Positions 1,465 to 27,451 of a stretch of DNA of 28,608 nt are shown piece by piece (within the stretch, counting starts at the first letter, position 1; each line of letters opens with the position of its first letter). The stretch comes from an uncultured Acidimicrobiia bacterium (GTDB lineage Bacteria; Actinomycetota; Acidimicrobiia; Acidimicrobiales; AC-14), in the NCBI GenBank assembly GCA_963836205.1, contig CAWIIV010000004.1, forward strand, positions 1 through 28,608, given 5' to 3'. The notes beneath the pieces were generated by a model. That model was not told the origin of the DNA. It made no database searches and saw only the letters and a list, made by a program, of their open reading frames with translations. Made by a program: the position numbers and the translations under genes.

Positions 1465-2564
1465 TCAGACCGGCGGCATGAGGACGATCTCGGGCGACGC
1501 CTCGTCCGGCACGACCCAGGCGAGGAGACGCCCGCCCTCATCGTCCACCGCCTCCCGATCGGCGGCGGGCCACGTCCAGAAGGGGCGGATGACCAGGCGG
1601 GCCGGGCGCTTCAGGTTCCACCAGCCGGCGAAGAGCCCGTCGACCAGGACCGAGCCCTGGATGCTGTTCACGCCGTCGGGGTCCGGGGCTCGGGCCTCGT
1701 CGTTGAAGAACCGGGTCCGGTCGGCGTGGCCGAGCAGGACGTTGTCGTACTCAGGCAGGAAGCGAGGCGATGCCGGAGCGGACGGGTCGGGACGGGGGGC
1801 GTCCGGCACGTCGAGCAGCTCCCGCCCGTTGTGGTCGCGGAACACCCGCAGCCCGGGACGGAGGCGATCGGCGACCTCCCGCAGGTGGGTGAGGCCGCAC
1901 CAGTTCTGCATGTCCATCGCGGACGCGGGGCCGAAGGCGGCCAGGTACCGCAGCATCAAGCGGTCGATGGAGAGACCCCGGTCGAGGGGTCGGCCCAGCC
2001 ACGACTCGATCGTGGTCCAGGTCGGACGGCTGCTCGTGTGCCAGAGGCCTCGGGGCGGGACCTGCACCACCGGCAGGAGGAACGTGGCCGCCGCGGCCAG
2101 TGACGCCGGATCGCGGTCGGGCCAGCGCTCGCCCAGCAGCCGGCGCAGCTCGACGCCCGTCCGGGGCTCGGCCTCCACGAGGGCCCGGCCGGCGGCAGCC
2201 ACCTCGTCGACCGCAACCCCGACCAGGTGGCGCCCGAACAGTCCTCCCGGGGAGACACCCCGATCCAGCACCGGCTGCATCATCGGTCGCAGGCGGAGGC
2301 CGTCGTCGGCCGTGACCAGGTGCAGGGTCGACCGCATGAGTCCCATCCGCACGACGCCGCGGCCCGCCAAAGCGCCTCCAGGTCCTCGGCCCGGAACCCC
2401 TCCACCCTCGACCACAGGGCCAGGTAGGGGTTCCTCGGCACCTGGGCCTGCATGCCGACCAGGTGCTCCACCATGGCCGCCACCGGCATGTCCACCCGCT
2501 CCAACAGGTGCTGGCGGGCGAGGGTGGCGCGGTTGAGGGCCCGCAAGCTGAGGACGTCGGACAT
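1465..2564 (-). CDS. AlkZ/YcaQ-like winged-helix (HTH_42) DNA glycosylase; one frameshift near 2370
   Basis: N-terminal LNRATLARQHLLER...GMQAQ.P..PYLALWSR (QxQ motif) joins MRSTLHLV, RYLAAFGPAS..D...WCGL and RFLPEYDNVLLGHADR. The shift falls in an A/T run at 2369-2371. Confidence 0.85.
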
Positions 2565-2609
2565 CCGCCCATGCTGGCCCAGCGGGCCGCGCTAGCGTCG
2601 CGGGCGACC

Positions 2610-3512
2610 ATGGAGCACCGGGCCGGACCGCTCCTGCGGCCGGAGGCTGCGCCGGTCGCGGTCGCCCCGTTCGGGACCACCACGGGTGCCGTCCTGCGCC
2701 TGGTCCGGGCCGAGAACTGCGTCATGGCCGGGGTGGCCACCCTGGTGGGTGCCGGAACCGCCGTCGCCGCCTCCCCCTCCCTGGCCACTCTCGCGGGACC
2801 GGTGGCCGCCGTCATGCTCGTGCTCGCCTTCGGCAACGTGGTCAACGACGTCGTCGACCAGGAGTCCGACCGCATGGGCAAGGGCCACCGCCCGCTCCCG
2901 GCGGGTCGGGTGTCGACCGCCCAGGCCGGGGGGCTGGCGGCCGCCCTCCTCACCGCCGCGTTGGCCGTGACCCTGGCCTCGGCCCGGGACGAGCTGTTCC
3001 TCGTGGTCGCCATGTGCGTGGTGGCCGCCCTCTACACGCCCTTCCTCAAGCGGGTCCCCCTCCTCGGCAACGCCGTCTTCGCGGCCCAGTGCGGGACCAC
3101 GCTGGTCTTCGGGGCCCAGGCCGCGGGTGGGGCCGAGGCCGCGACGGTGGCCGCGGCCCTGCTCGTGGGGGCGGGCATCCTGTGCGTCGAGGTGGCCAAG
3201 ACGGTGGAGGACGCCTCCGCCGACCGGGCCGTCGGCACCCGCACCGTGGCCCACCTGGTCGCGGTCCGGCACCAGCCCCGGCTGGTGGGCGGGTTCGCGG
3301 CGGCCTACGCCCTGGTGTGGGCCGTCCTCCTGACCACCGCCCGCAGCCCTGCGTTGTTCGCCCTGGCCGCAGCCCCGGTCGTCCCCCTCCTGGCCTTCGC
3401 CCTCCTGCCGCCCGGCCCCGGCCCGAGCGAGGCGCCGGCCCGGGTCGCCCGCTTCATCGTGGCCAGCAAGTGCCTGTGGCCCCTCGCCCTGGTGGCGCTC
3501 ACCGGCCTGTAG
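2610..3512 (+). CDS. UbiA-family prenyltransferase, DGGGP-synthase-like
   Basis: NDVVDQESDRMGKGHRPLPAG (NDxxDxxxD...RP), LYTPFLKR.PLLGN, second acidic motif KTVEDASAD, and many hydrophobic helices. Confidence 0.85.
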   Translation: MEHRAGPLLRPEAAPVAVAPFGTTTGAVLRLVRAENCVMAGVATLVGAGTAVAASPSLATLAGPVAAVMLVLAFGNVVNDVVDQESDRMGKGHRPLPAGRVSTAQAGGLAAALLTAALAVTLASARDELFLVVAMCVVAALYTPFLKRVPLLGNAVFAAQCGTTLVFGAQAAGGAEAATVAAALLVGAGILCVEVAKTVEDASADRAVGTRTVAHLVAVRHQPRLVGGFAAAYALVWAVLLTTARSPALFALAAAPVVPLLAFALLPPGPGPSEAPARVARFIVASKCLWPLALVALTGL

Positions 3513-10424: not shown

Positions 10425-10735
10425 GCCGCCTTCGGCGGGGCCGACTCGGCGGAGGAGGCCGAGTCGACGTCGGTGAAATCGAAGGTGGCGTCGAACGGGA
10501 AGGCCGACTCCACCGCCGCCCGGGTGTCGGCTTCCTCGATCAGCCCGGTCATCGACTCGCCCGACATCATGGCGATGACGAGGGCGAGGGCAGCAACGTG
10601 GCCCGCCTCCCAACCGTCGCCGTAGCCGGTGAGGTAGTCGAACGTGGGGGCTTCCGGCGCCACCTTGCCCACCGCCCAGTGGCGGGCGGCGGCGTTCTGC
10701 AGGAATCCTCGGCACAAGCTCTCGATGTCATCCAT
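10421..10735 (-). CDS. Hypothetical protein (104 aa)
   Basis: AGAGGAG RBS before the ATG, good GC3 bias, YLTGYGDGWEAG motif. Confidence 0.65.
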   Translation of the reverse strand: MDDIESLCRGFLQNAAARHWAVGKVAPEAPTFDYLTGYGDGWEAGHVAALALVIAMMSGESMTGLIEEADTRAAVESAFPFDATFDFTDVDSASSAESAPPKAA

Positions 10736-11214
10736 CGTGCCGCTCCTCTCTGGGCGTCATCCCCGTATCGTCATTTCCCCTTTGGGACTTGAGCCACACA
10801 CGGCGAATGAGCTTTTCGACCCACCCGGCAATGGGGGCACGGTCGGGGCCGCGTTCCCCCCTCCCACACGGGAACCGCCTCACAGCGAGTCATACGCCCG
10901 CTGACCTGCGATGACGCGGCCATCACGCGTCCACCGACCGAAGACCGCAGGCGGGCCCGCGAGCGCAGGCAGGATCGAGCGTCGATTTTGTCAATACCGG
11001 GGCCCTGGCCGGTGACGGGCGCGTCACGCGGACGACCCCGGCCCGCCTCTTCAAGCGACCGCCACCGGGCGCCGTCGAGGACCCGCCCGTGGCCACCCCT
11101 TTGACCGTCGTCGAGCGGCACCAGCACCGCATGGAGGGCCGGGGAAGTAGTCCGATCGGCTCTTTGTCGGCCGCCGGCCTCAAGCGCTCTCGGGCGGTGG
11201 CCGACCGTTCGTCC

Positions 11215-11442
11215 ATGGCCACCCGGCGCTTCGTCAGGAGAGCGGAGGAATGGACTGAGGTCGCCCGCTGGCTGGGTGTCTTCTGGTTCTGCCGCTGCCA
11301 CTACAGCAACGTCGCCAGCTACCGCTGCTACTACTGCGGGAAGCGGGCGCCGGCAGAGGTCCGCACCCTGGTGATCGACACCCTCCGGGCCGCGGAGCGG
11401 GTCGAGATCCCGGCCCCCGTACCGGTCTCCGCCCGTCATTAG
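11215..11442 (+). CDS. Small protein with a RanBP2/NZF-like zinc ribbon (start uncertain; ORF open from 11089)
   Basis: W-F-C-R-C-x3-N-x5-C-YY-C-G, with coding-like codon use from ATG 11215. Confidence 0.55.
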   Translation: MATRRFVRRAEEWTEVARWLGVFWFCRCHYSNVASYRCYYCGKRAPAEVRTLVIDTLRAAERVEIPAPVPVSARH

Positions 11443-11479
11443 GGACGTTCGGCTCTCCCTGCCCCAACCCCGGTACGGG

Positions 11480-11485
11480 TACCTT
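11480..11485 (+). promoter_or_regulatory. Putative -10 element for a leaderless hydrogenase transcript
   Basis: TACCTT (TANNNT) lies 6 nt before ATG 11492 and there is no Shine-Dalgarno sequence. Confidence 0.4.
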
Positions 11486-11491
11486 GATCGC

Positions 11492-12514
11492 ATGGAGCAG
11501 GTGCCGGTCCTGTGGCTCACCGCCGGCCTCAGTTGTGACGGCGACTCGATCGCCATGACCGCCGCCACCCAGCCCAGCCTGGAGGACCTCGTGCTGGGCG
11601 CCTTCCCCGGTGTGCCCCGCGTCCGTTTCCACCACCCGGTGCTGGCCTACGAGGTGGGCGACGAGTTCCTGGCCGGGTTCGAGGACGCGGCGGCGGGCAA
11701 GCTCGACCCCTTCATCCTGGTCATCGAGGGCTCCATCCCCGACGAGACGGGCAACGAGGAGGGGTGTTGGGCCGGCTTCGGCACCGACCCCGCGACCGGC
11801 CAGCCCATCCCCACCACCACCTGGGTCGACCGGCTCACGGCCAAGGCGTGGGCGGTGATGGCGGTGGGCACCTGCGCCGCCTACGGCGGCATCCACGGCA
11901 TGGCCGGCAACCCCACCGGCGCCATGGGCCTGGCCGACTACCTGGGCTGGGACTGGCGCTCGCAGGGCGGCATGCCCATCGTCAACCTGCCCGGCTGCCC
12001 GATCCAGCCCGACAACTGCACCGAGACCCTGCTCTACCTGGTCCGCCAGCTGGCCGGGCTGGCCCCGCCGATCCCGCTCGACCACGTCCTGCGCCCCAAG
12101 TGGCTGTTCGGCCAGACCCTCCACGAGAACTGCGACCGGGGCGGCTACTACGAGCAGGGCGACTTCGCCGGCGAATACGGGTCGTCCAAGTGCATCGTCA
12201 AGCTCGGGTGCTGGGGACCGGTGGTCGACTGCAACGTGGGCAAGCGGGGGTGGATGAACGGCGTCGGCGGCTGCGCCAACGTCGGCGGCACGTGCATCGG
12301 CTGCACCATGCCCGGCTTCCCCGACAAGTTCCAGCCCTTCCTCGACGAGCCCCCGGGGGCGAGGATGTCGTCGTCGGCGGTGCTGCTCTACGGACGGTCG
12401 GTACGGGCCCTGCGCAACGTGACCCGTGCGTCGATGAACGTCGAACCGGAGTGGCGAGGGCCGCTGCCGAAGGGACTGCGGACCGCGGGCGACGACCCGC
12501 CGACCGGCGGGTGA
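11492..12514 (+). CDS. hhyS: [NiFe]-hydrogenase small subunit, group 1h/5 type, no TAT leader
   Basis: LWLTAGLSCDGDS.AMTAATQPS (Cys/Asp proximal ligands), EGSIP, GTCAAYGG, PGCP, HENCDR, KLGCWGP..CN, C.NVGG.CIGCTMPGFPD. Confidence 0.92.
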   Translation: MEQVPVLWLTAGLSCDGDSIAMTAATQPSLEDLVLGAFPGVPRVRFHHPVLAYEVGDEFLAGFEDAAAGKLDPFILVIEGSIPDETGNEEGCWAGFGTDPATGQPIPTTTWVDRLTAKAWAVMAVGTCAAYGGIHGMAGNPTGAMGLADYLGWDWRSQGGMPIVNLPGCPIQPDNCTETLLYLVRQLAGLAPPIPLDHVLRPKWLFGQTLHENCDRGGYYEQGDFAGEYGSSKCIVKLGCWGPVVDCNVGKRGWMNGVGGCANVGGTCIGCTMPGFPDKFQPFLDEPPGARMSSSAVLLYGRSVRALRNVTRASMNVEPEWRGPLPKGLRTAGDDPPTGG

Positions 12515-14283
12515 CCGACACCGGCCCCCACCTGGTCGACAAGACGTGGGACCCGATCACCCGCATCGTCGGCAGCCTCGGCATCCACGCCCGCATCGAC
12601 TTCCGTGACCGCAAGGTGGTGCGCTGCCACAGCACGTCGTCGATCTTCCGGGGCTACAGCGTGTTCATGAAGGGCAAGGACCCCCGCGACGCCCACCAGA
12701 TCACCAGTCGCATCTGCGGCATCTGCGGCGACAACCACGCCACCGCCTCCGTCTACGCCCAGCAGATGGCCTACGGGATCAAGCCCCCGCACCTGGCCGA
12801 GTGGATCGTCAACCTGGCCGAGGCGGCCGAGTACATGTTCGACCACAACCTCTACCAGGAGAACCTGGTGGGGGTGGACTTCTGCGCCCGCATGGTGGGG
12901 GAGACCAACCCCGCGGTGCTGGCCCGGGCCGAGGTCACCGAGTCGCCCCACGCCGACGTCCACGGCTACCGCACCATCGCCGACATCATGCGGGCGTTCA
13001 ACCCCATGGAGGGTGCCCTCTACCTGGAGGCGCTCAAGATGAGCCGCCTCACCCGGGAGATGTTCTGCCTGATGGAAGGGCGCCACGTCCACCCGTCGCT
13101 GTTGTACCCGGGCGGCGTCGGCACCGTGCCCACGGTCCAGCTCTTCGACGACTACCTGGTGCGGCTGGTGAAGTACGTCGAGCACCTCAAGCGCATCGTC
13201 CCTCTCCACGACGACCTCTTCGACTTCATGTACGAGGCCCTGCCCGGTTACGAGGAGGTCGGCCGGCGGCGGGTGCTGCTCGGCTCGTGGGGCTCGTTCC
13301 AGAACCCGGAGACGTGCGACTTCCGCTACGACCACATGACCTCGTGGGGCCGCGACATGTTCGTCACGCCCGGCATCGTGGTCGACGGCGATCTGGTCAC
13401 CACCGACCTGGTCGAGATCAACCTGGGGATGCGGATCCTGCTCGGCAGCTCGTTCTACGAGGACTGGGCCGAGGGGGAGACCTTCGTCACCCACGACCCC
13501 CTGGGCCACCCCGTCGACCAGCGCCATCCCTGGAACCAGACCACCTCGCCCCGGCCCCAGCGGCGCAACTTCGAGCCGGGCGGCCACTACACGTGGGTGA
13601 TGTCGCCCCGGTGGCTCGATGCCCGCACCGGAGAGCATCTCGCCCTCGACACCGGCGGAGGCCCCCTCGCCCGGCTGTGGGTCACCGCCCTGGCCGGCCG
13701 GGTGCACACCTCCTACGTCGACGCGCCGGGCGACGGGTCGGTGCGCATCCGCCTCCCCCGCACCGCCCACCTACCCGAGACCGAGCTCACCTGGCGGGTG
13801 CCGCGGTGGTCGAACACCATCGAGCGCGACCGGGCCCGCACCTACTTCCAGGCCTACAGCGCGTCCATCGCCTTCCACTTCCTGGAACAGGCGATGGCGG
13901 AGGTGAGCGCGGGCCGGCTCGACGTGTGGACGCCGTTCGAGGTGCCCGACGAGGCCGTCTCGTGCGGGTTCCACGAGGCGGTACGGGGCGTCCTGTCCCA
14001 CCACATGGTGATCCGCAAGGGCCGCATCGCCAACTACCACCCGTACCCGCCCACCTGCTGGAACGCCAGCCCCCGGGACTCGTTCGGCACCGCCGGCCCC
14101 TATGAGGACGCGGTCGCGGGATCGCCGGTGTTCGAGGAGAACGGGGCCGACCAGTTCAAGGGCATCGACATCATGCGCACCGTCCGCAGCTTCGACCCCT
14201 GCCTGCCCTGCGGCGTCCACCTCTATCTGGGCGGGGGAAAGGTGCACCGGGCCCTCCACGGCCCCACGCTCGGGGTCCGGTGA
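12511..14283 (+). CDS. hhyL: [NiFe]-hydrogenase large subunit, group 1h/5 type (590 aa)
   Basis: The GTG overlaps the hhyS TGA. Motifs: WDPITRIVGSLG, L1 TSRICGICGDNH, L2 SFDPCLPCGVH, plus a 20-aa C-terminal extension. Confidence 0.95.
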   Translation: MTDTGPHLVDKTWDPITRIVGSLGIHARIDFRDRKVVRCHSTSSIFRGYSVFMKGKDPRDAHQITSRICGICGDNHATASVYAQQMAYGIKPPHLAEWIVNLAEAAEYMFDHNLYQENLVGVDFCARMVGETNPAVLARAEVTESPHADVHGYRTIADIMRAFNPMEGALYLEALKMSRLTREMFCLMEGRHVHPSLLYPGGVGTVPTVQLFDDYLVRLVKYVEHLKRIVPLHDDLFDFMYEALPGYEEVGRRRVLLGSWGSFQNPETCDFRYDHMTSWGRDMFVTPGIVVDGDLVTTDLVEINLGMRILLGSSFYEDWAEGETFVTHDPLGHPVDQRHPWNQTTSPRPQRRNFEPGGHYTWVMSPRWLDARTGEHLALDTGGGPLARLWVTALAGRVHTSYVDAPGDGSVRIRLPRTAHLPETELTWRVPRWSNTIERDRARTYFQAYSASIAFHFLEQAMAEVSAGRLDVWTPFEVPDEAVSCGFHEAVRGVLSHHMVIRKGRIANYHPYPPTCWNASPRDSFGTAGPYEDAVAGSPVFEENGADQFKGIDIMRTVRSFDPCLPCGVHLYLGGGKVHRALHGPTLGVR

Positions 14284-14301
14284 CCCCGGGTCGGTGACCG
14301 A

Positions 14302-15807
14302 GTGAGCGACACCGGCCCCGTCGACGTGGCCGGGCTGGAGGCGCACCTGGCGGCGATGGCCGTCGGCGACAGCGAGGCCCTGGAGGCCATGCTCCGCCTG
14401 GCCGAGGTGGTCTTCCCGGGACGGGTGGGCATCGGCGACCGGGAGCGAGTCGTGTGGCCGACCGCCGGCCACCACCACGGTGGCGCCGCCCATCCGGGCG
14501 ACGACGCCGACCTCAGCGAGCGCGACCAGCTGGCCGCCAACGTGCGTCGATCGGAGGTCCGCTTCCAGTCCCTCGTGGAACAGGTGCCGGCGGTGGTGTT
14601 CTCCGCCGCCCTCGGCGACGCCGACAACGAGGTCTACGTCAGCCCCCACATCGAGACCGTGCTCGGGTTCACCCAGCAGGAGTGGCTGACCAACCCCCTC
14701 CTCTGGTACTCCCAGCTCCACCCCGACGACCACGACGTGGTGATCGAGGCCTTCACCCGGGGCGTGCAGACGGGGGGGCCGTTCCGGGCCGAGGTGCGCT
14801 TCATCTCCCGCGACGGCGAGGAGGTCTGGATCCTGGGCGAGGCCCGCCTCATCCGCGACGACGCCGGCCGGTTGGCCTACTTCCAGGGCGTGGGCTTCGA
14901 CATCACGCCGTCCAAGCGGGCGCAGGCGATGATGGCGGAGGCCGAGCACGTCCGGGTGGAGGCGGCCCAGCTCCTGGCCGAGGTCTACGCCGCCCGCAAC
15001 GTGGAGCTGGCCGAGCTCAACGAGCAGCTACGGGTGGCGGTGGACCAGGCGGAGGCGGCCGAGGCCCTCCAGCGCCAGCTCCTGGCCCGGGAGCGGGAGG
15101 TCGTCGACCGCCTGACCCGCCTCGACCGCGACAAGAACGACTTCGTGTCCAGCGTCAGCCACGAGCTGCGGACGCCCGTCACCAGCATGCTGGGCTACCT
15201 GGAGATGCTCGGCGACGGCGACGCGGGGCCGCTCAACGTCCAGCAGACCCGCATGCTGGAGGTGATCAGCCGCAACAGCCGGCGGCTCCTCAACCGCATC
15301 GAGGACCTGCTGACGGTGTCGGGCGTGGAGGCGGGCAAGATCCGGCTGACGCTGACGCCGGTGGCGGTTCCACTGCTGATCGAGTCGGCGGTGGCGGCCA
15401 TGGCCCCGGCCCTGTCGGGACGGGAGCTGAAGCTCACGGTCGACGTGGCCGACGACGCCATGACCGTCACCGCCGACGCCGAGCACCTCGACCGGGTCCT
15501 CATCAACCTGTTGAGCAACGCGGTCAAGTTCACGCCCGACGGCGGCCGGATCTCGGTCTCGGTGGGCCGGCAGGGCGACACGGTGGCGCTGGTGGTGGCC
15601 GACACCGGCCTCGGCATCCCCGAGGACGAGCAGTCGCGGGTCTTCGAGCGGTTCTTCCGGTCGTCCAACGCCCAGGAGCTTGCCATCGCCGGCACCGGGC
15701 TGGGCCTGGTGATCGTGAAGGGGATCGTCGAGCTCCACGGGGGGGCAGTGGCACTGCGGTCGACCCCCGGCGTCGGCACCGAGGTCACCATCAGCCTCCC
15801 CGCCTGA
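14302..15807 (+). CDS. Cytoplasmic PAS-domain sensor histidine kinase
   Basis: PAS/PAC (YVSP...LHPDD...DIT), coiled coil, H-box SHELRTP, N-box NLLSNAVKFT, DTGLGI, FERFFR, GTGLGL. No TM segment and no receiver domain. Confidence 0.93.
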   Translation: MSDTGPVDVAGLEAHLAAMAVGDSEALEAMLRLAEVVFPGRVGIGDRERVVWPTAGHHHGGAAHPGDDADLSERDQLAANVRRSEVRFQSLVEQVPAVVFSAALGDADNEVYVSPHIETVLGFTQQEWLTNPLLWYSQLHPDDHDVVIEAFTRGVQTGGPFRAEVRFISRDGEEVWILGEARLIRDDAGRLAYFQGVGFDITPSKRAQAMMAEAEHVRVEAAQLLAEVYAARNVELAELNEQLRVAVDQAEAAEALQRQLLAREREVVDRLTRLDRDKNDFVSSVSHELRTPVTSMLGYLEMLGDGDAGPLNVQQTRMLEVISRNSRRLLNRIEDLLTVSGVEAGKIRLTLTPVAVPLLIESAVAAMAPALSGRELKLTVDVADDAMTVTADAEHLDRVLINLLSNAVKFTPDGGRISVSVGRQGDTVALVVADTGLGIPEDEQSRVFERFFRSSNAQELAIAGTGLGLVIVKGIVELHGGAVALRSTPGVGTEVTISLPA

Positions 15808-15823
15808 ACGCTCTCCGGGCGCG

Positions 15824-15870
15824 AAAAGGGCGCCCACTCGGCTGACGGCGGACCAGCCGAGAAGGGCGCC
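15824..15870 (-). terminator. Intrinsic terminator-like hairpin
   Basis: Minus strand: GGCGCCC-tt-CTCGGCTG-loop-CAGCCGAG-t-GGGCGCC followed by CTTTT. Confidence 0.6.
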
Positions 15871-15962
15871 GGCCCATATGTTGGCGGGTTCCGCGCCGCT
15901 ATGCAAGACAGACCGGTCAGTCGCCTCGATTTCTTTCCGAAACCGCTCGGCGGCCGGGCCGT

Positions 15963-15983
15963 GACCCCGGCGGCTCCGGGGTC
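15963..15983. terminator. Hairpin just after the zf-UBP stop codon
   Basis: GACCCCGG-cggct-CCGGGGTC, a perfect 8-bp stem. Confidence 0.5.
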
Positions 15984-15987
15984 GAAG

Positions 15988-16278
15988 TCACGGGTGGTGG
16001 AACGAGGGGGCGCCGGGGACGAGGAAGGCGACCTCGTCGACGTAGCACCACCACCACTCCTCACCGGGCTCGTAGGTCTGGATCAGGGGGTGGGCGGTGC
16101 TGCGGAAGTGGGCGGTGGCGTGGCGGTTGGGGGAGCTGTCGCAGCAGCCCACGTGGCCGCACGCCATGCACAGCCGCAGGTGGACCCACCGCCCGCCGAT
16201 GGCCAGGCAGTCCTCGCACCCGTCGGCGTGGGGCGAGACGGCGGCGGCCTGGTCGAGATGGGTGCAGGTGTCGGGCAT
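15988..16278 (-). CDS. UBP-type zinc finger protein (96 aa)
   Basis: CTHL...GCEDCL...WVHLRLCMACGHVGCCDSSPNRHATAH...WCYVD, with RBS AGAGGGGA. Confidence 0.9.
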   Translation of the reverse strand: MPDTCTHLDQAAAVSPHADGCEDCLAIGGRWVHLRLCMACGHVGCCDSSPNRHATAHFRSTAHPLIQTYEPGEEWWWCYVDEVAFLVPGAPSFHHP

Positions 16279-16295
16279 GGGTCCCCTCTGGTGTA

Positions 16296-17696
16296 TCAGC
16301 CTCGGGCGCAGGATGTTCCCGGACGGCGGGCGGCGGTCGACCAGTCGGGATTGTCGGTGCGGGGCCAGTAGTCGCCGGTCCCCGGGTCCTGGTCGTAGGG
16401 GACGGGCGGGTCGTCGCCACCGGCGATGGCGGCTACGGCGGCCAGGAAGCGGTCGATGTCGGCCGCAGTGGTCGACAGCCCGGCGCTGGCCCGCACCGCG
16501 CCCGGGATGTGGCGCCGGTCGCCCCGAAGCACGGCCGACCGGTACGAGGCGACCTCGCGCTCGTCCAGGCCGAGCAGGCGCAGGAGGTAGGGGTGGGCGC
16601 AGAAGCACCCGTGGCGGACGCCGATGGCGTGCTCCGCGCTCAGCCGGGCCGCGACCAGGGCGTGGTGGACGCCGTCGACCACGAACGTGGCCAGGGGCAG
16701 GGTGGGCGCCCCCAGGGCCGGGCCCAGCAGGTGCACGCCGTCGATGGCGGCCAGCCCGTGGCGGAGGCGGTCGGCCATGGCGTCGTCGTGGGCGACGATG
16801 GCGGGCCAGCCGAGCTTGGCCAGCTCGTCGATGGCGGCGTGGAGGGCGATCGCGCCCACGACGTTGGGCGAGCCCGCCTCCTCCCGCTCGGGCGGGTCGG
16901 TCCACACCACCTCGTCGAGGTCGACCAGGTCGACGGCCCCCCCGCCGGCCAGGAAAGGGTCGCCCGTCTCGAAGGTCGACCGGGGGCCGACCAGAACGCC
17001 CCCGCCGTACGGGGCGTACATCTTGTGACCGCTCCAGGCGAGGAAATCGGCGCTGGCGGGAAGCGGGCGGTGGGCCGCCAGCTGGGCCGCGTCGACCAGC
17101 ACCGGGATTCCCCGCTCGTGGGCCGCGGCCACGATGTCGTCGGTGGGTGGAATCCAGCCGGTGACGTTGGACGCACCGGTGACGGTCAGCAGCCGGGGCC
17201 GGGGCCCGTCGTCGAGGACGGCCGCCACTTCGTCGGCGTCGAAGGTGCCGTCGGGCCCGCACTCCACGTACCGGCGGCGAGCCAGGCGGGCCCAGGGGAG
17301 GAGGTTGGCGTGGTGCTCGACGACGGTGGTGACCACGACGTCGTCGGGCGCCAGCCGCAGCCGGTAGGCGAGGTGGTTGACGGCCTCGGTGGTGTTGCGG
17401 CAGATGATTGCCACGTCGGTAGCCTCGTCCTTGCCGGCGAAGGCAAGGGCCGCGGCCCGGGCCTCCTCGTACTCGGCGGTGGCCAGCTGCGACTTCCACC
17501 CCGCCCCCCGGTGCACGCTCGAGTACCGGGGCATGAAGTCGGCGACCCGCTGGGCGACGGCCGGAAGCGCACTGGTGGACGCGGCCGCGTCGAGGGACAG
17601 GTAGGGCCGCTGGAGACCGTCGATGCAGGGTGCGCTCAGGCCGTCGCCGACCAGCTCGACGCCGAGACTTTCGCCTTCCGGCGCCCGATCCGGCAC
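16296..17696 (-). CDS. Class V PLP aminotransferase / cysteine desulfurase (SufS/CsdA-like)
   Basis: LDAAAST, SVHRG, NTTEA, EHHAN, DAAQ, SGHKMYAP (PLP Lys), AGSPN, VRHGCFCAHP (catalytic Cys region). Confidence 0.92.
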   Translation of the reverse strand: MPDRAPEGESLGVELVGDGLSAPCIDGLQRPYLSLDAAASTSALPAVAQRVADFMPRYSSVHRGAGWKSQLATAEYEEARAAALAFAGKDEATDVAIICRNTTEAVNHLAYRLRLAPDDVVVTTVVEHHANLLPWARLARRRYVECGPDGTFDADEVAAVLDDGPRPRLLTVTGASNVTGWIPPTDDIVAAAHERGIPVLVDAAQLAAHRPLPASADFLAWSGHKMYAPYGGGVLVGPRSTFETGDPFLAGGGAVDLVDLDEVVWTDPPEREEAGSPNVVGAIALHAAIDELAKLGWPAIVAHDDAMADRLRHGLAAIDGVHLLGPALGAPTLPLATFVVDGVHHALVAARLSAEHAIGVRHGCFCAHPYLLRLLGLDEREVASYRSAVLRGDRRHIPGAVRASAGLSTTAADIDRFLAAVAAIAGGDDPPVPYDQDPGTGDYWPRTDNPDWSTAARRPGTSCARG

Positions 17697-18918: not shown

Positions 18919-19575
18919 ATGAAGGTTGCGATGCTGGGAACGGGCGTGGTCGGCCAGACCCTCGGCACCCGGCTGGCCGGCCTGGGCCACCAGGTGATGA
19001 TGGGCGCCCGCCAGGCCGGCAACGAGAAGGCCGCGGCCTGGGCCGCGGGCCTCGGGCCGTCCGCCTCGGCCGGCACCTTCGCCGACGCCGCCGCCTTCGG
19101 CGAGCTGGTGGTCAACGCCACCGCGGGCTCGGTGTCGGTCGAGGTCCTCACCGCCGCCGGCGAGGACAACCTGGCGGGCAAGGTCGTGCTCGACGTCTCC
19201 AACCCCCTCGACTTCTCGAAGGGCATGCCGCCGACCCTCTCGGTCTGCAACACCGACTCCGTGGGCGAGCAGCTCCAGGCCCGGTTCCCCGCCGTGCGAG
19301 TGGTCAAGTCCCTCAACACGGTCAACGCCGACGTGATGGTGCACCCCGAGATCGTCCCCGGGTCGCACACCATGTTCCTGTGCGGCAACGACGCCGACGC
19401 CAAGGACGAGGTGCGGGCGGTGCTGGAGAGCTTCGGCTGGCCCGCCGCAGACGTCCTCGACCTGGGCGACATCGGTGCCGCCCGGGGGATGGAGATGTAC
19501 CTGCCCCTCTGGCTACGCCTGTGGGGCGCCACCGGCACCGGCCACCTCAACGTCAAGGTCTGCGTCGGGACCTAG
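18919..19575 (+). CDS. NADPH-dependent F420 reductase family oxidoreductase
   Basis: AGGAG RBS, MKVAMLGTGVVG Rossmann motif, DVSNPL, VVKSLNT, CGND..AK, DLG. Confidence 0.9.
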   Translation: MKVAMLGTGVVGQTLGTRLAGLGHQVMMGARQAGNEKAAAWAAGLGPSASAGTFADAAAFGELVVNATAGSVSVEVLTAAGEDNLAGKVVLDVSNPLDFSKGMPPTLSVCNTDSVGEQLQARFPAVRVVKSLNTVNADVMVHPEIVPGSHTMFLCGNDADAKDEVRAVLESFGWPAADVLDLGDIGAARGMEMYLPLWLRLWGATGTGHLNVKVCVGT

Positions 19576-22104: not shown

Positions 22105-22285
22105 ACGCCAGCGGCGTCTGGTTGAGCCTCTGACCGCTCAACCGAACAGGCGTACGACGCTCAGCGGGCCCAGGACGCCCGGAAGCTGAACCCGACGACA
22201 CCCGGCAGCCCGCTGACTGGCCCGGGATCGGGCGAGCGCGATCAGCCTGACGTTGGTAGGTTCGCCTTCGGATGGACCTGGGCCG

Positions 22286-25200
22286 ATGACGTCGATCGAG
22301 CGGACCGCCTATCCCCGCTTCGGGCGCCTGGTGAGCGCCCGGGAGCTGACGGGCCTCAGCCCGTCGGCCGAGGAGGTTCTCTGGGCAAGGGACCGTGCTC
22401 GGTCCGATGCGCATGTGCTGGCCTTGGTGGTCTCGCTCAAGTGCTTCCAGCGCCTGGGGTACTTCCCGAGGCGTGACGATATCCCCGTCGCCGTCGTCGA
22501 CCACCTGCGTCGCTGCCTCGAGCTCCCCGAAGGGATCGATCCCGATGTGGGGTCCGAGCGGACGGGGACGTCCCAGCATCAACTGATCCGGGACAAGGTC
22601 GGGGTGGCGCTCGACCCGGAACGGGCGCGGATGGTCGCCGCCGAGGCGATCCGGGCCGCGGCCGAGGTCAAGAACAACCCGCCCGACCTGATCAACGTGG
22701 CGCTGGAGATGATGGTGAAAGCGTCGCTGGAGCTGCCTGGCTTCTCCACCCTGGACGCGATGGCGTCGCAGATCCGGGGGGAGGTGAACACTTCCATCTT
22801 CGAGCGGATCGCCAGTCGCCTGACGCTGCGCGACGCCAGGGTCCTGCAGCAGCTGCTGGACGTGATCGCGCCCGCCCGCACCACCCGGTTCAACGAATTG
22901 AAGAAGGTGGCCGGGCGGGCGTCGTGGTCGGCCTTCCGCGAGCAGGTCAGCCATATGGCGTGGGTCGACTCGCTCGGAGACACCTCGGTGTGGCTGGAGG
23001 GCATCGCCGAGTCCAAGATCGCCGACTTCGCGGGCGAGGCGTGGGCCGCGGATGCTGCGGTCATGGGTGACGTCGCCCCGCTGAAGCGCACTGCACTGCT
23101 GGCCTGTGTGGTCCACGTCGGCCGACAGCGTGTCCGCGACGACCTGGCGGAGATGTTCTGCAAGCGGATCGCCTCCATCACCAAGCGGGCCAAGACCGAG
23201 CTCGAGGAGATCCGGGCCCGGCAGCAGGAGCTGTCGGAGCGCCTCATCGAGCACTACCGCGACGTGCTCGTCCACCTGGACCCCCGCGGCGCATCCCAGT
23301 CGGCGGCGCTGGATCTGGCCAGGGCAGCAGTGGAACGGGCCGGAGGCTTCGAGGCCGAGCTGGCCGACATCGAGGCCGTCGCCGCCCATCACGCCAACCA
23401 CTACATGCCCTTGGTCGATCGCAACTTCCGCCGGGACCGGGCCACGATGTTCGCCTTCGCCCGGACCGTCGCGCTGGAGGCGACCAGCGCCGATCGCTCG
23501 GTCCTCGACGCCCTCGACCACGCCCTCGCCCATTCCCACCTGACCCGTGACCACATCCCGGGCCATGTCGACGGGGTGGCGCTCGACCTGTCGTTCGCCT
23601 CGGAGCAGTGGCAGCGCCTGGTCCGCGGCCGCGACGACAAGGGCCGGCTGGCCCGGCGCCATTTCGAGGCGTGCGTGTTCACCTACCTGTCCGACGCCCT
23701 GCGCACGGGCGACGTCGCGGTGAAGGGTTCCCAGGCCTTCGCCAACTGGTCGGCCCAGCTCCTGCCCTGGGAGGACTGCCGCGCCCTGTTGGGCGAGTAC
23801 TGCGCCGAGGCGGGCCTGCCCACCACCGCGGCCGCCTTCACCGAGCAGCTGAAGGCGTCGCTCGTGGCCAAGGCGGCCGAGGTCGACGCCGGCTACCCCA
23901 ACAACGCCGACCTGGTCATCGACGAGGTCACCGGGGTGCCGTCGTTGAAGCGCCGCCGGGGCCAGGACCGCAGCGCCAGCGCGGTGGCGCTGGAGGAGGC
24001 GATCAAGGAGCGCATGCCCGAGCGGTCGCTGCTCGACATCCTGGCCCGCACCGCCTATTGGCTCGACTGGTGGCGGCGGTTCGGGCCGGCATCGGGGGCG
24101 GACCCCAAGCTGGCTGACCCGCTGCGGCGCTACGTCCTGACGACGTTCGCCTACGGGTGCCTGCTCGGCCCCACCCAGGCCGCCCGCCACATCCGGGGCG
24201 TGTCCGCCCACGAGCTGGGGGCCACGGCCAACCGACACTTCAACATCGACAAGCTGAACCAGGCCATCGTCGACGTGGTCAATGCCTACCTCGGCCTCGA
24301 CCTGGTCAAGGTGTGGGGCGACGGCTCCTCCGTCGCCGCCGACGGCACCCAGCTCGACACCCTGATCGACAACCTCCTGGCCGAGTCCCACATCCGCTAC
24401 GGCGGCTACGGCGGCATCGCCTACCACCACGTGGCCGACAACTACATCGCCCTGTTCAGCCACTTCATCCCCTGCGGGGTGTGGGAGGCGGTCTACATCG
24501 TGGAGGGGTTGCTGAGGAACGAGTCCGAGGCCCAGCCGGGGACCGTCCACGCCGACACCCAGGGCCAGAGCTACCCGGTGCACGCCTTGGCCCATCTCTT
24601 CGGCTTCGACCTGCTGCCCCGGATCCGCAACTGGAAGGACCTCATCTTCTACCGGGCCGACGCCGACACCCGCTACCTCCACATCGACGCCCTGTTCGGC
24701 GAGGAGGGCCAGAACACCGTCAACTGGCGGCTGATCGAGACCCACTGGCAGGACCTGATGCAGGTCGCCCTGTCGATCCGAGAAGGCAAGCTGTCCTCGA
24801 CCCTGCTGCTGCGCCGGCTCGGGACCGAATCGCACCGCAACAACATCTACAAGGCGTTCCGGGAGGTGGGCCGGGTCGTGCGCACCATCACGCTCCTGCG
24901 CTTCATCTCCGAGCCCAAGCTGCGGGAGGAGATCACCGCCGCCACCAACAAGGCCGAGGCCTACAACGGCTTCTCGGGCTGGCTGATGTTCGGCAACGAG
25001 GTGATCGCCCGCAACGACCCGGCCGAGCAGGAGAAGATCCTCAAGTTCAACTCGCTGGTGGCCAACTGCGTGATCTTCCACACCACCCTCGACATGATGG
25101 CCGTGATCCGGCTACTCATCGCCGAGGGCTGGGTGGTCGACCCCGATGATGTGGCCACGATGTCCCCCTACCTCACGGAGCGGATCAAGCGCTTCGGCGA

Positions 25201-25291
25201 CTACGCCACCGATGGCCTCTCCGAGCCGCCCGAGGCCTTCGACCCTCACCTCGACCTTCCGGAGTCGGCCGCCGCCGGCGCCGCCGCCTGA
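22286..25291 (+). CDS. tnpA: Tn3-family transposase (1001 aa)
   Basis: MTSIERTAYPRF start, FQRLGYF, DDE residues in ADGT / HADTQGQS / NKAEAYN, LPRIRNWK, and C-terminal SPY....IKRFGDY. Confidence 0.95.
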   Translation: MTSIERTAYPRFGRLVSARELTGLSPSAEEVLWARDRARSDAHVLALVVSLKCFQRLGYFPRRDDIPVAVVDHLRRCLELPEGIDPDVGSERTGTSQHQLIRDKVGVALDPERARMVAAEAIRAAAEVKNNPPDLINVALEMMVKASLELPGFSTLDAMASQIRGEVNTSIFERIASRLTLRDARVLQQLLDVIAPARTTRFNELKKVAGRASWSAFREQVSHMAWVDSLGDTSVWLEGIAESKIADFAGEAWAADAAVMGDVAPLKRTALLACVVHVGRQRVRDDLAEMFCKRIASITKRAKTELEEIRARQQELSERLIEHYRDVLVHLDPRGASQSAALDLARAAVERAGGFEAELADIEAVAAHHANHYMPLVDRNFRRDRATMFAFARTVALEATSADRSVLDALDHALAHSHLTRDHIPGHVDGVALDLSFASEQWQRLVRGRDDKGRLARRHFEACVFTYLSDALRTGDVAVKGSQAFANWSAQLLPWEDCRALLGEYCAEAGLPTTAAAFTEQLKASLVAKAAEVDAGYPNNADLVIDEVTGVPSLKRRRGQDRSASAVALEEAIKERMPERSLLDILARTAYWLDWWRRFGPASGADPKLADPLRRYVLTTFAYGCLLGPTQAARHIRGVSAHELGATANRHFNIDKLNQAIVDVVNAYLGLDLVKVWGDGSSVAADGTQLDTLIDNLLAESHIRYGGYGGIAYHHVADNYIALFSHFIPCGVWEAVYIVEGLLRNESEAQPGTVHADTQGQSYPVHALAHLFGFDLLPRIRNWKDLIFYRADADTRYLHIDALFGEEGQNTVNWRLIETHWQDLMQVALSIREGKLSSTLLLRRLGTESHRNNIYKAFREVGRVVRTITLLRFISEPKLREEITAATNKAEAYNGFSGWLMFGNEVIARNDPAEQEKILKFNSLVANCVIFHTTLDMMAVIRLLIAEGWVVDPDDVATMSPYLTERIKRFGDYATDGLSEPPEAFDPHLDLPESAAAGAAA

Positions 25292-25442
25292 GGCCACCCG
25301 GTGGGACGAGAGGGCGAGCCGACCTGGGAGCCGACCAGCGCAATGGGTCTGATCGCCAGCATGATCGACGGCCAGCTCGCCAGCCGCGATCTCGAGGTCG
25401 GTACGGTGTGGCTGCTCCGGGGCCCGGGTGGTTGAGGGCGCA

Positions 25443-25832
25443 ATGCGACCCTTCGCACCCATGACCATCGAGCACCTCGCCGCCCACGTGGCGAAGGAGA
25501 TCGACGCCGATCGCAGGTGGATGCTCCTTCTGGAGTTCCTCGAGGAGTACGAGCACGAGCCAACACCGATTCGGCGCTCTCTGATTGAGGCCGAACCGGG
25601 AACCGTCGGCGACGACCGCTGGAACGCCCTGCTCGCCGGCGTTGCCGAATGGCTCGCCGTCCGGGACGACTTCGCCCCGCCGGCGTGGGTCCACGCCCCG
25701 AAGCGCAGCCTCAGCGATATGTGGTGCCCGCACACCCTGGCCTCACTGCGACGACTGGCGGATGACAATGTCCCCCCAGAGATCCGCCGCCACGGGGTGC
25801 TCATCGACCCCTACGACCTCGCCCGAGCATGA
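25443..25832 (+). CDS. Putative antitoxin/partner of the nucleotidyltransferase
   Basis: EP...GDDRWNALLAGVAEWLA......PAW...PPE.RRHGV.I...DL pattern. Its stop overlaps the next ATG (ATGA). Start could be 25428-25461. Confidence 0.6.
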   Translation: MRPFAPMTIEHLAAHVAKEIDADRRWMLLLEFLEEYEHEPTPIRRSLIEAEPGTVGDDRWNALLAGVAEWLAVRDDFAPPAWVHAPKRSLSDMWCPHTLASLRRLADDNVPPEIRRHGVLIDPYDLARA

Positions 25833-26365
25833 GCGACCCGCTCCTCAGTCGAGCCCAGCTCCATGAGGCACTGGAGAACCTGGCCCGCCGCCTGCACCGT
25901 CGGGGCGTCCACGCCGAGCTCTACGTCTTCGGCGGCGGGGCCATGGTCCTCGGCCACAACGCCCGAGAGGCGACTATGGACCTCGACGCCGCCATCCGCC
26001 GGGGCCACGGGGCGGTCACATCCGAGGCTCAGGCCGTGGCCCGCGAACTGGGCTTGCCAAGCTGGTGGCTGAACGAGCAGGCGACTGCCTACCTTCCGGC
26101 TGCCCCCGACGACGAGGCCAGGACGGTGCTCGCCCTTCCGGGACTCACGGTGATCGCAGCGTCGCCTCGCCACCTCCTCGCCATGAAGGCTCGCGCCGCC
26201 CGTCAGCGCGACGTCGCCGACATCATCACCCTGGCTCGCATCGTCGGGGCGACGAGTGCGGAGCAGGTCGTCCGCCTAGCCGAGCAGGTCTTCGGAGGGG
26301 AGATCCTCACCGAGCGGAGCAGGGCCGTGCTCGCCGACCTGGACGACACCCTGGCCGGCGGCTGA
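25829..26365 (+). CDS. Pol-beta-superfamily nucleotidyltransferase (DUF6036/AbiEii-like), putative toxin
   Basis: LYVFGGGAM......REATMDLDA (GG...DxD), WLN, LLAMK..A.R.RD..D. Confidence 0.75.
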   Translation: MSDPLLSRAQLHEALENLARRLHRRGVHAELYVFGGGAMVLGHNAREATMDLDAAIRRGHGAVTSEAQAVARELGLPSWWLNEQATAYLPAAPDDEARTVLALPGLTVIAASPRHLLAMKARAARQRDVADIITLARIVGATSAEQVVRLAEQVFGGEILTERSRAVLADLDDTLAGG

Positions 26366-26408
26366 CCTCGCGGACCCTCCTCGTACCCGGCCGTTTCCGA
26401 GATCGAGG

Positions 26409-26520
26409 CGCCCGGAAATCAACTTCAGAGAACATTCCTTCTCTGAAGTAAGCTTCCGGGCGTGGCTTCAGAGAACACGCCTCACCTGCCTTTAGCCGGG
26501 GCTGATTTCGCTTCAGAGAA
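26409..26520. other. Site-specific recombination (resolution) site: inverted core plus two direct accessory repeats
   Basis: ACTTCAGAGAA (26422-32), spacer CATTCC, TTCTCTGAAGT (26439-49). Outer arms CGCCCGGAA (26409-17) and TTCCGGGCG (26454-62). CTTCAGAGAA recurs at 26466 and 26511. Confidence 0.85.
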
Positions 26521-27451
26521 TAGGACGGACTCACCCGGCCCTCGACATGGGCGGGCCCCGGTCGACCTGGCTGACCGCTGGGCGGCGGAGCAGACCGCGT
26601 ACGTTGCGGCGCTAGCGACGGCCCCACTGGCGGCCCAGACCCGCCGCACCTACGCCTCCAAGGCCCGCCAGTACTTGGCCTGGCTGGCGGTCGCCGAGGT
26701 CGATGGCGACCCCCTCGGGTCCAAGGACGGCCGGGACTGGGCGGTGCGGGACTACCGCAGCCACCTCCAGGCCACACTCAAGCGGAAACCGGCGACGGTG
26801 AACAGTGCTCTGGCGGCCGTGGACGACTTCTACACCCGGCGGGGCCTCGGGCCGGCCAGCGCGCTGCGCGTCGACCTACCAGATGCCGCACCCCGAGCGC
26901 TCAGCGCCCGGGCCCAGGTCCGGTATCTCCGAGCCGTCAGCGCTTGCCCGTCGCCCCGAGACCAGGCGCTTGCCCTCATCCCGTTTTATGCCGGCGCCCG
27001 CATCAGCGAGATCGTCGGTCTCGACGTGGACGACGTCCGGCTGTCTGCACGCAAGGGGATGCTTCGGATCTTCGGCAAGGGCGAGCGGGTCCGAGAGGTG
27101 CCGATCCACCCCAAGCTGGTCAAGGTGCTCACCGGGTGGCTCCGCGAGCGGCCTGACTGGCCCGGGAGCGACTCTGCGGCACTGTTCCTGAACCAGCGTC
27201 GTGGCCGCCTCAGCGTCAAGGCTGCGCACGACATCATTACTGGCATCTCCAGCGGGGCGGGGCTCGAAGACGAGATCACTGCCCACGTCCTGCGCCACAC
27301 ATTCGCCACGACGCTGGTGCGGGGCGGTACGGACCTCGTCATCGTCGCCGAGCTCCTGGGCCACGCCCGACTCGAGACCACCCGCGGCTACACCCGCCCC
27401 ACGGCAGCGGATCGCGCCCGGGCGCTCGACCTTCTCGCCGTTGACGAGTGA
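26462..27451 (+). CDS. Tyrosine recombinase (XerC/D-like, TnpI-type resolvase role); start uncertain
   Basis: N-terminal SAM-like domain (TRRTY...YLAWL, PATVN), YAGARISE (R), GKG (K), HVLRHT (HxxR), LLGH, TT.GY (Y). Confidence 0.92.
   Translation: MASENTPHLPLAGADFASENRTDSPGPRHGRAPVDLADRWAAEQTAYVAALATAPLAAQTRRTYASKARQYLAWLAVAEVDGDPLGSKDGRDWAVRDYRSHLQATLKRKPATVNSALAAVDDFYTRRGLGPASALRVDLPDAAPRALSARAQVRYLRAVSACPSPRDQALALIPFYAGARISEIVGLDVDDVRLSARKGMLRIFGKGERVREVPIHPKLVKVLTGWLRERPDWPGSDSAALFLNQRRGRLSVKAAHDIITGISSGAGLEDEITAHVLRHTFATTLVRGGTDLVIVAELLGHARLETTRGYTRPTAADRARALDLLAVDE

Follow-up and report, generated by a model that had tools for sequence, protein, structure and literature searches.

Why should the genes of a group 1h [NiFe]-hydrogenase be followed directly by the gene of a soluble, PAS-containing histidine kinase, and by none of the genes that usually accompany such an enzyme? 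The question is raised by positions 11492–15807 of contig CAWIIV010000004.1 (assembly GCA_963836205.1) from an uncultured Acidimicrobiia bacterium. The stretch of DNA analyzed here, referred to as the window, is this entire 28.6-kb contig (C4; 28,608 nucleotides); it belongs to a genome of 4.05 Mb with 71% G+C on 25 contigs, 88.6% complete, for which the closest public genomes are metagenome-assembled ones from Acidimicrobiia. Much of the atmospheric H2 that soils take up is attributed to group 1h hydrogenases; we know of little that explains when bacteria make these enzymes, and the characterized [NiFe] H2 sensors known to us belong to group 2b only and respond to high H2. The evidence assembled below favors, with a probability of roughly 55%, a hydrogenase-linked signaling module in which the PAS kinase responds to the state of the hydrogenase small subunit, and in which H2 oxidation by the adjacent large subunit is the likely input in this lineage; such a module would probably be a new and independently evolved form of hydrogenase-linked signaling.

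All three genes lie on the plus strand. The small-subunit gene hhyS2 (11492–12514; 340 amino acids; Pfam Oxidored_q6 and NiFe_hyd_SSU_C) overlaps by 4 bp with the large-subunit gene hhyL2 (12511–14283; 590 amino acids; Pfam NiFeSe_Hases), whose GTG start at 12511 runs into the TGA stop of hhyS2 at 12512–12514; the kinase gene (14302–15807; 501 amino acids; Pfam PAS_3, HisKA, and HATPase_c), again with a GTG start, begins 18 bp past the hhyL2 stop. Pfam matches and coordinates confirm the small–large–kinase layout given in a preliminary description of this DNA, which had also remarked on missing hyp, protease, and electron-transfer genes; no Hyp protein, protease, or electron-transfer partner occurred among the 33 window open reading frames (ORFs) scanned with Pfam, and genome-wide family searches placed no HypC, HypD, HypF, or HycI protease on C4. 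A simple pattern scan found no terminator-like site between hhyL2 and the kinase gene; across positions 10700–16500, pattern scanning returned no promoter-like site and one terminator-like site (11262–11278) that was not above shuffle expectation. Sequencing runs listed as sharing words with positions 11400–15900 were DNA runs, each with a small share, and included no RNA run. HhyS2, HhyL2, and the kinase all lacked an NCBIfam model above cut-off, and the kinase had no equivalog.

The large subunit clearly belongs to group 1h, judging from its sequence. It aligned over residues 7–570 with HofG, the large subunit of the actinobacterial-type hydrogenase of Cupriavidus/Ralstonia (PDB 5AA5, chain C), at 1010 bits, against at most 160 bits for all other solved [NiFe] large subunits (117 bits for the group 2a Huc); identity was approximately 72% to HofG and 70–73% to the plasmid HhyL of Cupriavidus, Streptomyces, Mycobacterium, and Methylocystis. 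Together with the shared Ni-Fe motifs, these values uphold the group 1h assignment made earlier for this locus. The motifs RICGICGDNH and DPCLPCGVH, presumably the L1 and L2 motifs in their group-specific form, were the same in all 34 group 1h large subunits compared, HofG and 11 of 11 kinase-linked sequences included, and a C-terminal tail was present in all 34 as well. Approximately 20 residues follow the CGVH of HhyL2, likewise in the canonical paralogue that the same genome encodes on contig C6; HoxC, the group 2b large subunit on Cupriavidus pHG1, terminates exactly at its CTVH. Group 1h large subunits are probably processed at the C-terminus, because the solved HofG chain (579 residues) stops at the motif histidine, its gene of 1812 bp contains 603 codons, and the cluster includes a protease gene. 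The preliminary description had stated that the Ralstonia group 5 enzyme, like the group 2b sensors, escapes C-terminal processing; this was not borne out, since HhyL2 keeps the tail and the HofG chain is shorter than its gene.

The twin-arginine translocation (TAT) leader, which that description says the Ralstonia enzyme lacks, is absent here too: HhyS2, which begins MEQVPVLWLTAGLSCDGD, has no RRxF or other twin-arginine motif. HhyS2 retains all cysteine columns that are invariant over 34 HhyS sequences (alignment A2), as do kinase-linked and orphan HhyS alike, and adds two clade-specific cysteines, C92 (11765–11767) and C176 (12017–12019); it ends without the canonical LTTGY tail. PAS-linked and canonical HhyS differ chiefly in columns near the C-terminus (T314S, V315M/L, K320E/D/A, and absence of the TGY tail). 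In the kinase-linked HhyL clade, 16 otherwise nearly invariant positions are substituted, including F63Q/V/I, five residues before the first Ni-Fe motif (Q63 at 12697–12699), and P516C/S (C516 at 14056–14058); among the six closest loci, HhyL is 87–95% identical, compared with 74–82% for the kinase. By the measure of Ni-Fe motifs, HhyS cysteines, and high HhyL identity, the kinase-linked enzyme is under constraint, and HhyS2L2 is a complete and probably active group 1h [NiFe]-hydrogenase. Intact catalytic motifs and an intact C-terminal tail are also what would be seen if HhyS2L2 were an ordinary second, energy-conserving uptake isoenzyme, with different kinetics or timing, and the kinase a sensor of O2, redox, or energy state that regulates its own operon without touching the enzyme; this explanation is considered unlikely, for reasons that recur below with the evidence on each side.

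The kinase opens with an N-terminal helical motif (residues 12–52), followed by a PAS core (residues 85–215; Pfam PAS_3 match at residues 111–197), a coiled-coil helix (residues 202–254), HisKA (15133–15333, residues 278–344; 65.2 bits), and HATPase_c (15475–15801, residues 392–500; 102.8 bits); the last two exceed their Pfam cut-offs, and the H-box SHELRTP places the phospho-acceptor at His287. Solved HisKA-family kinases matched at 125–130 bits. There is no transmembrane segment; the highest 19-residue hydropathy (1.85, residues 460–478) coincides with the G2 box of HATPase_c. The kinase is accordingly predicted to be soluble, and the PAS-HisKA-HATPase order without membrane anchor agrees with what had been described before. 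An AlphaFold2 model of residues 1–255 (mean predicted local distance difference test score, 80) shows a standard PAS core that continues into a long helix. The PAS domain, encoded at 14554–14946 on the plus strand, defines a hydrogenase-linked subfamily: alignment A1 contains 22 invariant positions over 28 PAS sequences from five phyla, including the stretch LGFTQQEWL...HPDD, and the N-terminal helical motif is common to several phyla. At E ≤ 1e-20, a protein search matched this PAS region in 210 protein clusters, which show the range of architectures described below. The complex predicted from HhyS (A2) and kinase residues 1–255 (A1) scored 0.00, a value that weighs neither for nor against binding.

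The window hhySL is not the genome's sole copy: a second, canonical hhy cluster was found on contig C6, and hypFCD on contig C22. The C6 cluster runs hhyS, hhyL, a NifU-like gene, DUF5947, DUF6084, a gene for a 540-residue protein without family assignment, a HycI-type protease gene, and hypC, in the same order as the cluster on Cupriavidus pHG1. Whole-genome family searches located HypF, HypD, and one HypC on C22; C6 has another HypC besides the HycI protease, and C19 a third HypC-like match. The window copy and the C6 copy are 67% (HhyL) and 62% (HhyS) identical. The NifU-like, DUF5947, DUF6084, protease, and hyp genes that typify group 1h clusters do not occur at the window locus; the absence of accessory genes is a feature of the locus, and not of the enzyme. 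An ordinary second isoenzyme would leave unexplained why the kinase-linked copy lacks the accessory genes while the canonical copy has them.

The linkage between enzyme and kinase is conserved. A kinase scan with one genome per species returned 80 loci, nine of them with full-length kinase matches (42–82% identity, tblastn), all in Acidimicrobiia or Actinomycetota genomes; hhyS and hhyL stood directly 5′ of the kinase gene in all nine. In a survey of 60 relatives, whose family totals count five genomes marked unpublished (G313, G320, G322, G328, and G340), the PAS domain was present in all seven other genomes of the window's genus (g1; 85–95% identity) and in both genomes of genus g145, and in 0 of the 27 remaining genomes of the family. 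The PAS match followed the kinase-type HhyL match at a distance of 240–350 nt in each of these positive genomes (7/7 and 2/2), so that the small–large–kinase layout, with the window's own genome counted, is shared by all 10 genomes of the two genera (8/8 and 2/2); recurrence of this synteny, which the preliminary description had made a touchstone of its proposal, is thereby established. Eight of the nine g1 and g145 relatives also contain the canonical, 67%-type copy (the ninth genome is 76% complete), and in each of the five Acidimicrobiia relatives traced from individual loci, hhyL occurs at exactly two places. At three more distant Acidimicrobiia loci (L017–L019), the PAS domain heads a kinase-REC-Hpt hybrid, and at L017 a stand-alone receiver gene lies directly 5′ of hhyS.

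Could the three genes have come together by chance, or have hitch-hiked on a mobile element? A Tn3 transposase and a tyrosine recombinase are encoded 6.4 kb downstream of the kinase gene, and the kinase-linked clade lies closer to enzymes from other phyla than to its host's canonical copy, which fits a horizontal origin. Close relatives, however, share the chromosomal neighbors of the module, with an ABC transporter and threonine dehydratase on its upstream side and a class-V aminotransferase on the other, and have no transposase there; the Tn3 transposase and integrase therefore did not unite these genes. With the linkage kept in every one of the ten genomes of two genera, and recurring with other architectures in four more phyla, chance adjacency or hitch-hiking is very improbable.

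In phylogenetic trees, kinase-linked HhyS and kinase-linked HhyL each formed a clade of their own with 100% support, apart from the canonical copies of the same genomes, which answers the earlier question of whether they form a lineage. Sister genera without the kinase have a single HhyL, with which canonical HhyL grouped, likewise at 100% support; the canonical form is for this reason regarded as the vertically inherited enzyme. At 98% support, the kinase-linked HhyL joined enzymes of Myxococcota and Gemmataceae from clusters that contain the same PAS, on a branch that excludes the acidobacterial, Cupriavidus, and canonical Acidimicrobiia HhyL. In the HhyS tree built with the more careful method, from which the long-branched acidobacterial row L068 was omitted, the canonical small subunits occupied one side of a branch with an ultrafast bootstrap of 98 and a Shimodaira–Hasegawa-like approximate likelihood ratio (SH-aLRT) of 95, and a single change suffices to account for the label "PAS-linked"; a frameshifted Gemmataceae HhyS was left out of alignment A2. 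These trees are unrooted and do not set the ancestral form. The one-sided branch, together with the C-terminal changes of PAS-linked HhyS, is a further pattern that a mere isoenzyme leaves unaccounted for.

The PAS subfamily reaches well beyond this lineage and adjoins group 1h small-subunit genes in Acidobacteriota, Myxococcota, Planctomycetota, and Rokubacteria; the loci in other phyla are 36–55% identical to the PAS part of the kinase (tblastn and blastp) and contain group 1h genes. The output domains attached to the PAS vary and comprise HisKA-HATPase, the same with added REC-Hpt, HisKA_3 with an adjacent REC-GerE regulator, HisKA_2, GAF-histidine kinase-REC, and SpoIIE/PP2C. In Myxococcaceae, an hhySL-protease-hypA-hypB cluster ends with a gene that joins the PAS to a SpoIIE/PP2C phosphatase; in Sorangium, it is fused to a HisKA_2 kinase; and in a Gemmataceae genome, a PAS kinase gene follows hhySL, NifU, and protease genes. 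A PAS protein that ends complete hhy-hyp clusters in these three groups resembles a cluster regulator, and in this respect favors the isoenzyme explanation. In the Rokubacteria (L024, 5715–8861), a relic of 54 residues of the HhyS N-terminus closely precedes a PAS-PAS-GAF-kinase-REC gene, the product of which matches the window kinase at its N-terminus with 51% identity; the arrangement appears to be a decayed pair of small subunit and kinase. Taken as a whole, the association between PAS and HhyS across phyla suggests an undescribed way to sense H2 or the redox state of the enzyme.

The association is most readily quantified in Acidobacteriota, where an even sample comprised 300 genomes and the centre genome (G387, flagged as unpublished, adds to the sample size only), and where a gap in scores separated PAS matches of at least 60% identity from those of 46% or less. 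The PAS subfamily was found in 8 of the 300 genomes, and a group-1h-like HhyS (at least 61% identity) in 13; all eight fell within these 13, and 0 of the 287 sampled genomes without such an HhyS had the PAS subfamily, a count to be read with the reservation that related genomes are not independent. Eight of the nine acidobacterial PAS matches lay 180–660 nt downstream of an HhyS gene, and the ninth (G500:C15) 2.3 kb upstream; seven of the eight PAS-positive genomes had two HhyS genes. A metagenome scan, biased by its query, a fusion protein, added 13 loci with HhyS directly 5′ of the PAS gene, nine of which continue to a downstream hhyS-hhyL.

The gene next to the acidobacterial kinase is an orphan small subunit. 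At L026, L067, and other loci, an orphan HhyS gene is followed by a PAS kinase gene (three PAS, HisKA_3, HATPase), sometimes by a second PAS-HisKA-HATPase gene, and then by a REC-GerE regulator gene; at loci of the L026/L067 type the canonical hhyS-hhyL-NifU-DUF5947-DUF6084 operon comes next. Two of these loci (L026, 6615–15169; L067, 6854–13527) are the clearest candidate regulatory units of the whole family. A kinase and a LuxR-type regulator directly 5′ of the canonical operon would suit an ordinary regulator of an isoenzyme; yet that explanation does not account for an orphan HhyS paralogue, with all cluster ligands intact, as the nearest neighbor of the acidobacterial kinase. Since an orphan HhyS stands beside the same PAS, the small subunit is suggested as the partner of the kinase, and not necessarily a dedicated large subunit.

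This partner opens the possibility of a redox sensor built on the small subunit that does not respond to H2: HhyS would equilibrate with an electron carrier or with the canonical Hhy, the kinase would read HhyS, and the Acidimicrobiia HhyL would be a passenger. Orphan HhyS-kinase pairs without an adjacent large subunit occur in all eight PAS-positive sample genomes and at L028, L030, and L034; at L028 there are only an orphan HhyS and a kinase, and the single hhyL of that genome lies on another contig. At L065, a large subunit split in two ORFs precedes an orphan HhyS and a PAS-GAF-kinase-REC protein, and another genome has a broken extra hhyL. Split large subunits from long-read metagenome assemblies, where frameshift errors are common, do not prove decay, however, and an orphan HhyS could report H2 by associating with the canonical large subunit. 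The 87–95% identity of HhyL2 within the window lineage, with motifs intact in 11 of 11 sequences, also argues that HhyL2 is needed there; a redox sensor of this kind is accordingly judged improbable. Among the Acidobacteriota, three extra or sole hhyL genes contain internal stops or are in pieces (G363:C6:2230473–2232216, G362:C19:30067–31657, and G360:C4:137254–138992), and are either decaying large subunits or long-read frameshift errors.

A more direct link between small subunit and kinase is suggested by a fusion record. In P0126 (761 residues; three member sequences), a full HhyS is joined in frame, through a linker that contains the N-terminal motif, to the PAS and a HisKA_2-HATPase kinase. 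This record is not explained by an isoenzyme with an independent regulator, and, as the fusion holds the small subunit only, it also suits a redox sensor. In P0140 (664 residues, partial, Thermoleophilaceae), a divergent small subunit is fused to other PAS domains and HisKA. Four in-frame HhyS/PAS pairs across a single stop codon were rejected as fusions; each has its own start codon.

Among described systems, the group 2b sensors, HoxBC-HoxJ-HoxA of Cupriavidus necator and HupUV-HupT-HupR, come closest. They share the order of small subunit, large subunit, and soluble PAS-HisKA-HATPase kinase (hoxA-hoxB-hoxC-hoxJ on pHG1), and the Pfam domain order of HoxJ is that of the window kinase; these sensor pairs are likewise extra to an energy-conserving hydrogenase, lack a TAT leader, and have no maturation genes of their own alongside. 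The differences are equally clear: the window enzyme is of group 1h, as its match to HofG attests; HhyL2 keeps a 20-residue tail where HoxC ends at the motif histidine; and no response regulator gene adjoins the kinase gene in the window's genus. HoxB carries an extension, whereas the C-terminus of HhyS2 is shortened relative to canonical HhyS. HoxJ and the window kinase align by BLASTP in the core only (kinase residues 235–501; 28% identity over 294 residues), with the PAS unaligned. On these alignments the kinase is evidently not an orthologue of HoxJ, and the system not a member of group 2b. The remark in the preliminary description that the layout mirrors hoxBCJ with another hydrogenase clade is therefore apt, and its term "independently evolved" fits a similarity to HoxJ that is limited to the catalytic core.

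Canonical group 1h enzymes (Cupriavidus HofKG, 5AA5; Mycobacterium and Streptomyces Hhy) share the Ni-Fe motifs, the cysteine pattern, and the lack of a TAT leader with HhyS2L2; in contrast, the pHG1 and C6 clusters have NifU-like, DUF5947, DUF6084, protease, and hyp genes but no PAS, whereas the window copy has the kinase instead and falls into a separate subclade. Putative sensory hydrogenases coupled to PAS or signaling outputs are also listed, in the HydDB scheme, for [FeFe] group C (C1 linked to histidine kinases, C3 to phosphatases) and for [NiFe] group 2c (linked to diguanylate cyclases); the phosphatase link of the C3 type is comparable to the Myxococcota hhy clusters with PAS-SpoIIE/PP2C, although the enzyme classes differ. 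In the available parts of the HydDB paper (PMC5037454), the sensory classes are 2b, 2c, and [FeFe] C1–C3, and group 1h appears as an uptake enzyme only; kinase mentions in the available parts of PMC12319191, bioRxiv 10.64898/2026.02.17.706317, PMC10657181, and PMC5037454 concern group 2b or other classes. A search of the full-text literature, with subscription journals and supplementary files outside its scope and an earlier mention there possible, found no link of group 1h or Hhy to a PAS kinase.

As a mechanism, signaling through the hydrogenase could proceed as follows. The genes hhyS2, hhyL2, and the kinase gene would form a single operon for a cytoplasmic module that operates beside the ordinary, energy-conserving Hhy, and HhyS2L2 would be matured by Hyp proteins and a protease encoded elsewhere in the genome. 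Electrons from H2 oxidized at the Ni-Fe site would pass to the three Fe-S clusters of HhyS2; the kinase, through its N-terminal helix and its dedicated PAS, would sense what state HhyS2 is in; and autophosphorylation at His287 would change, with the signal passed to a response regulator that, in this genus, is not encoded adjacently. As its output, the module would likely control either the canonical hhy cluster or a program of starvation and persistence.

Several points weigh against this interpretation. From gene content, cofactor motifs, the canonical paralogue, and the linkages described above we infer co-transcription, contact between the proteins, the role of H2 as signal, and the target genes, and specificity for trace H2 would follow purely by analogy from the class of the enzyme. 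HhyL2, with its tail and every catalytic motif, could be a mere second catalytic isoenzyme, and the PAS-linked enzyme of Myxococcota resembles a working enzyme more than a dedicated sensor. The acidobacterial kinase has an orphan small subunit as its partner, so that the signal there may be a redox state and not H2. With respect to the output, no response-regulator gene occurs in the window. The PAS model retrieved with Foldseek only generic PAS, LOV, and FixL folds and has no recognizable cofactor site; similarity to O2-, redox-, and light-sensing PAS in general would suit a kinase that serves an isoenzyme equally well. The loci were found through kinase peptides, one of them inside the PAS, which makes the subfamily defined by construction; its hhy linkage is independent of this choice. 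The module is also rare, as only 1 of 301 genomes in an even Acidimicrobiia sample contained it, the window's own. Finally, the P0126 fusion, known as a protein record, is no more than suggestive evidence for a link between HhyS and kinase; two further candidate fusions, P0162 and P0163, contain garbled stretches and look like frameshift artefacts; and among the 13 metagenome loci none has an HhyS-PAS fusion, the genes being adjacent. The earlier idea of an H2-sensing or hydrogenase-linked signaling system has thus come through the genomic comparisons on which it had been staked, namely the linkage in relatives and the second hhy copy, without being refuted; its premise of an unprocessed large subunit has been lost.

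A more far-reaching version is offered tentatively, and is on balance doubtful: a PAS family in at least five phyla might dock onto group 1h small subunits and turn them into sensors of atmospheric-level H2, either with a large subunit of their own or, as orphans, by borrowing the canonical one, which drive two-component, phosphorelay, or PP2C outputs; this would amount to a second independent invention of [NiFe] H2 sensing and the first known regulatory input of these enzymes, the main biological sink of atmospheric H2. If signaling of this kind is real, it would offer a testable route to the means by which soil bacteria sense trace H2 or the redox state of group 1h enzymes, to a candidate regulator for the acidobacterial hhy operon, and to a natural design for an O2-insensitive H2 biosensor on a high-affinity group 1h scaffold.

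A small ORF upstream of hhyS2 (11215–11442, plus strand; 75 residues; third-codon-position G+C of 0.85 in frame) encodes a CxC-x11-CxxC motif and stops 50 bp 5′ of hhyS2. Counterparts with 58–81% identity occupy the same place in five close relatives (L011–L015; tblastn), and no match was found in Pfam or NCBIfam; a minus-strand ORF that overlaps it obtains tblastn matches too. The ORF is a possible fourth operon gene, of uncertain coding status and operon membership.

The window copy recurs in the assembly on C5 (approximately 20 kb, 99.1% identity) and C3 (approximately 11 kb, 98.9% identity), within a range of 97–100%, and the start of C8 repeats the first 5.4 kb of the window (99.4% identity). 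The shared stretch corresponds to window positions 1–21290; the copies on C3 and C5 take in housekeeping genes, and homology stops near the mobile-element region. A true triplication on C3, C4, and C5 was rejected; the three copies are probably strain variants that were binned together, because housekeeping genes are copied too and the other nine genomes of g1 and g145 have one copy each.

Downstream of the conserved region, positions 22253–27451 look like a mobile island, with the Tn3-family transposase (22253–25291; 1012 residues; Pfam DUF4158 and DDE_Tnp_Tn3), a DUF6036 nucleotidyltransferase with a small upstream ORF (25428–26365), and the tyrosine recombinase (26462–27451; Pfam). Sister genera in family f1 often have up to several [NiFe] large subunits that are 40–47% identical to HhyL and represent another hydrogenase group; the window's genus has none of this type above the threshold used. 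Other genes of the window are ordinary, and include those for an AlkZ-like DNA glycosylase (1465–2415, minus strand) and, on the plus strand, a UbiA prenyltransferase (2463–3512), an F420-dependent NADP oxidoreductase-like protein (18919–19575), and a MauE-like membrane protein (28004–28543).

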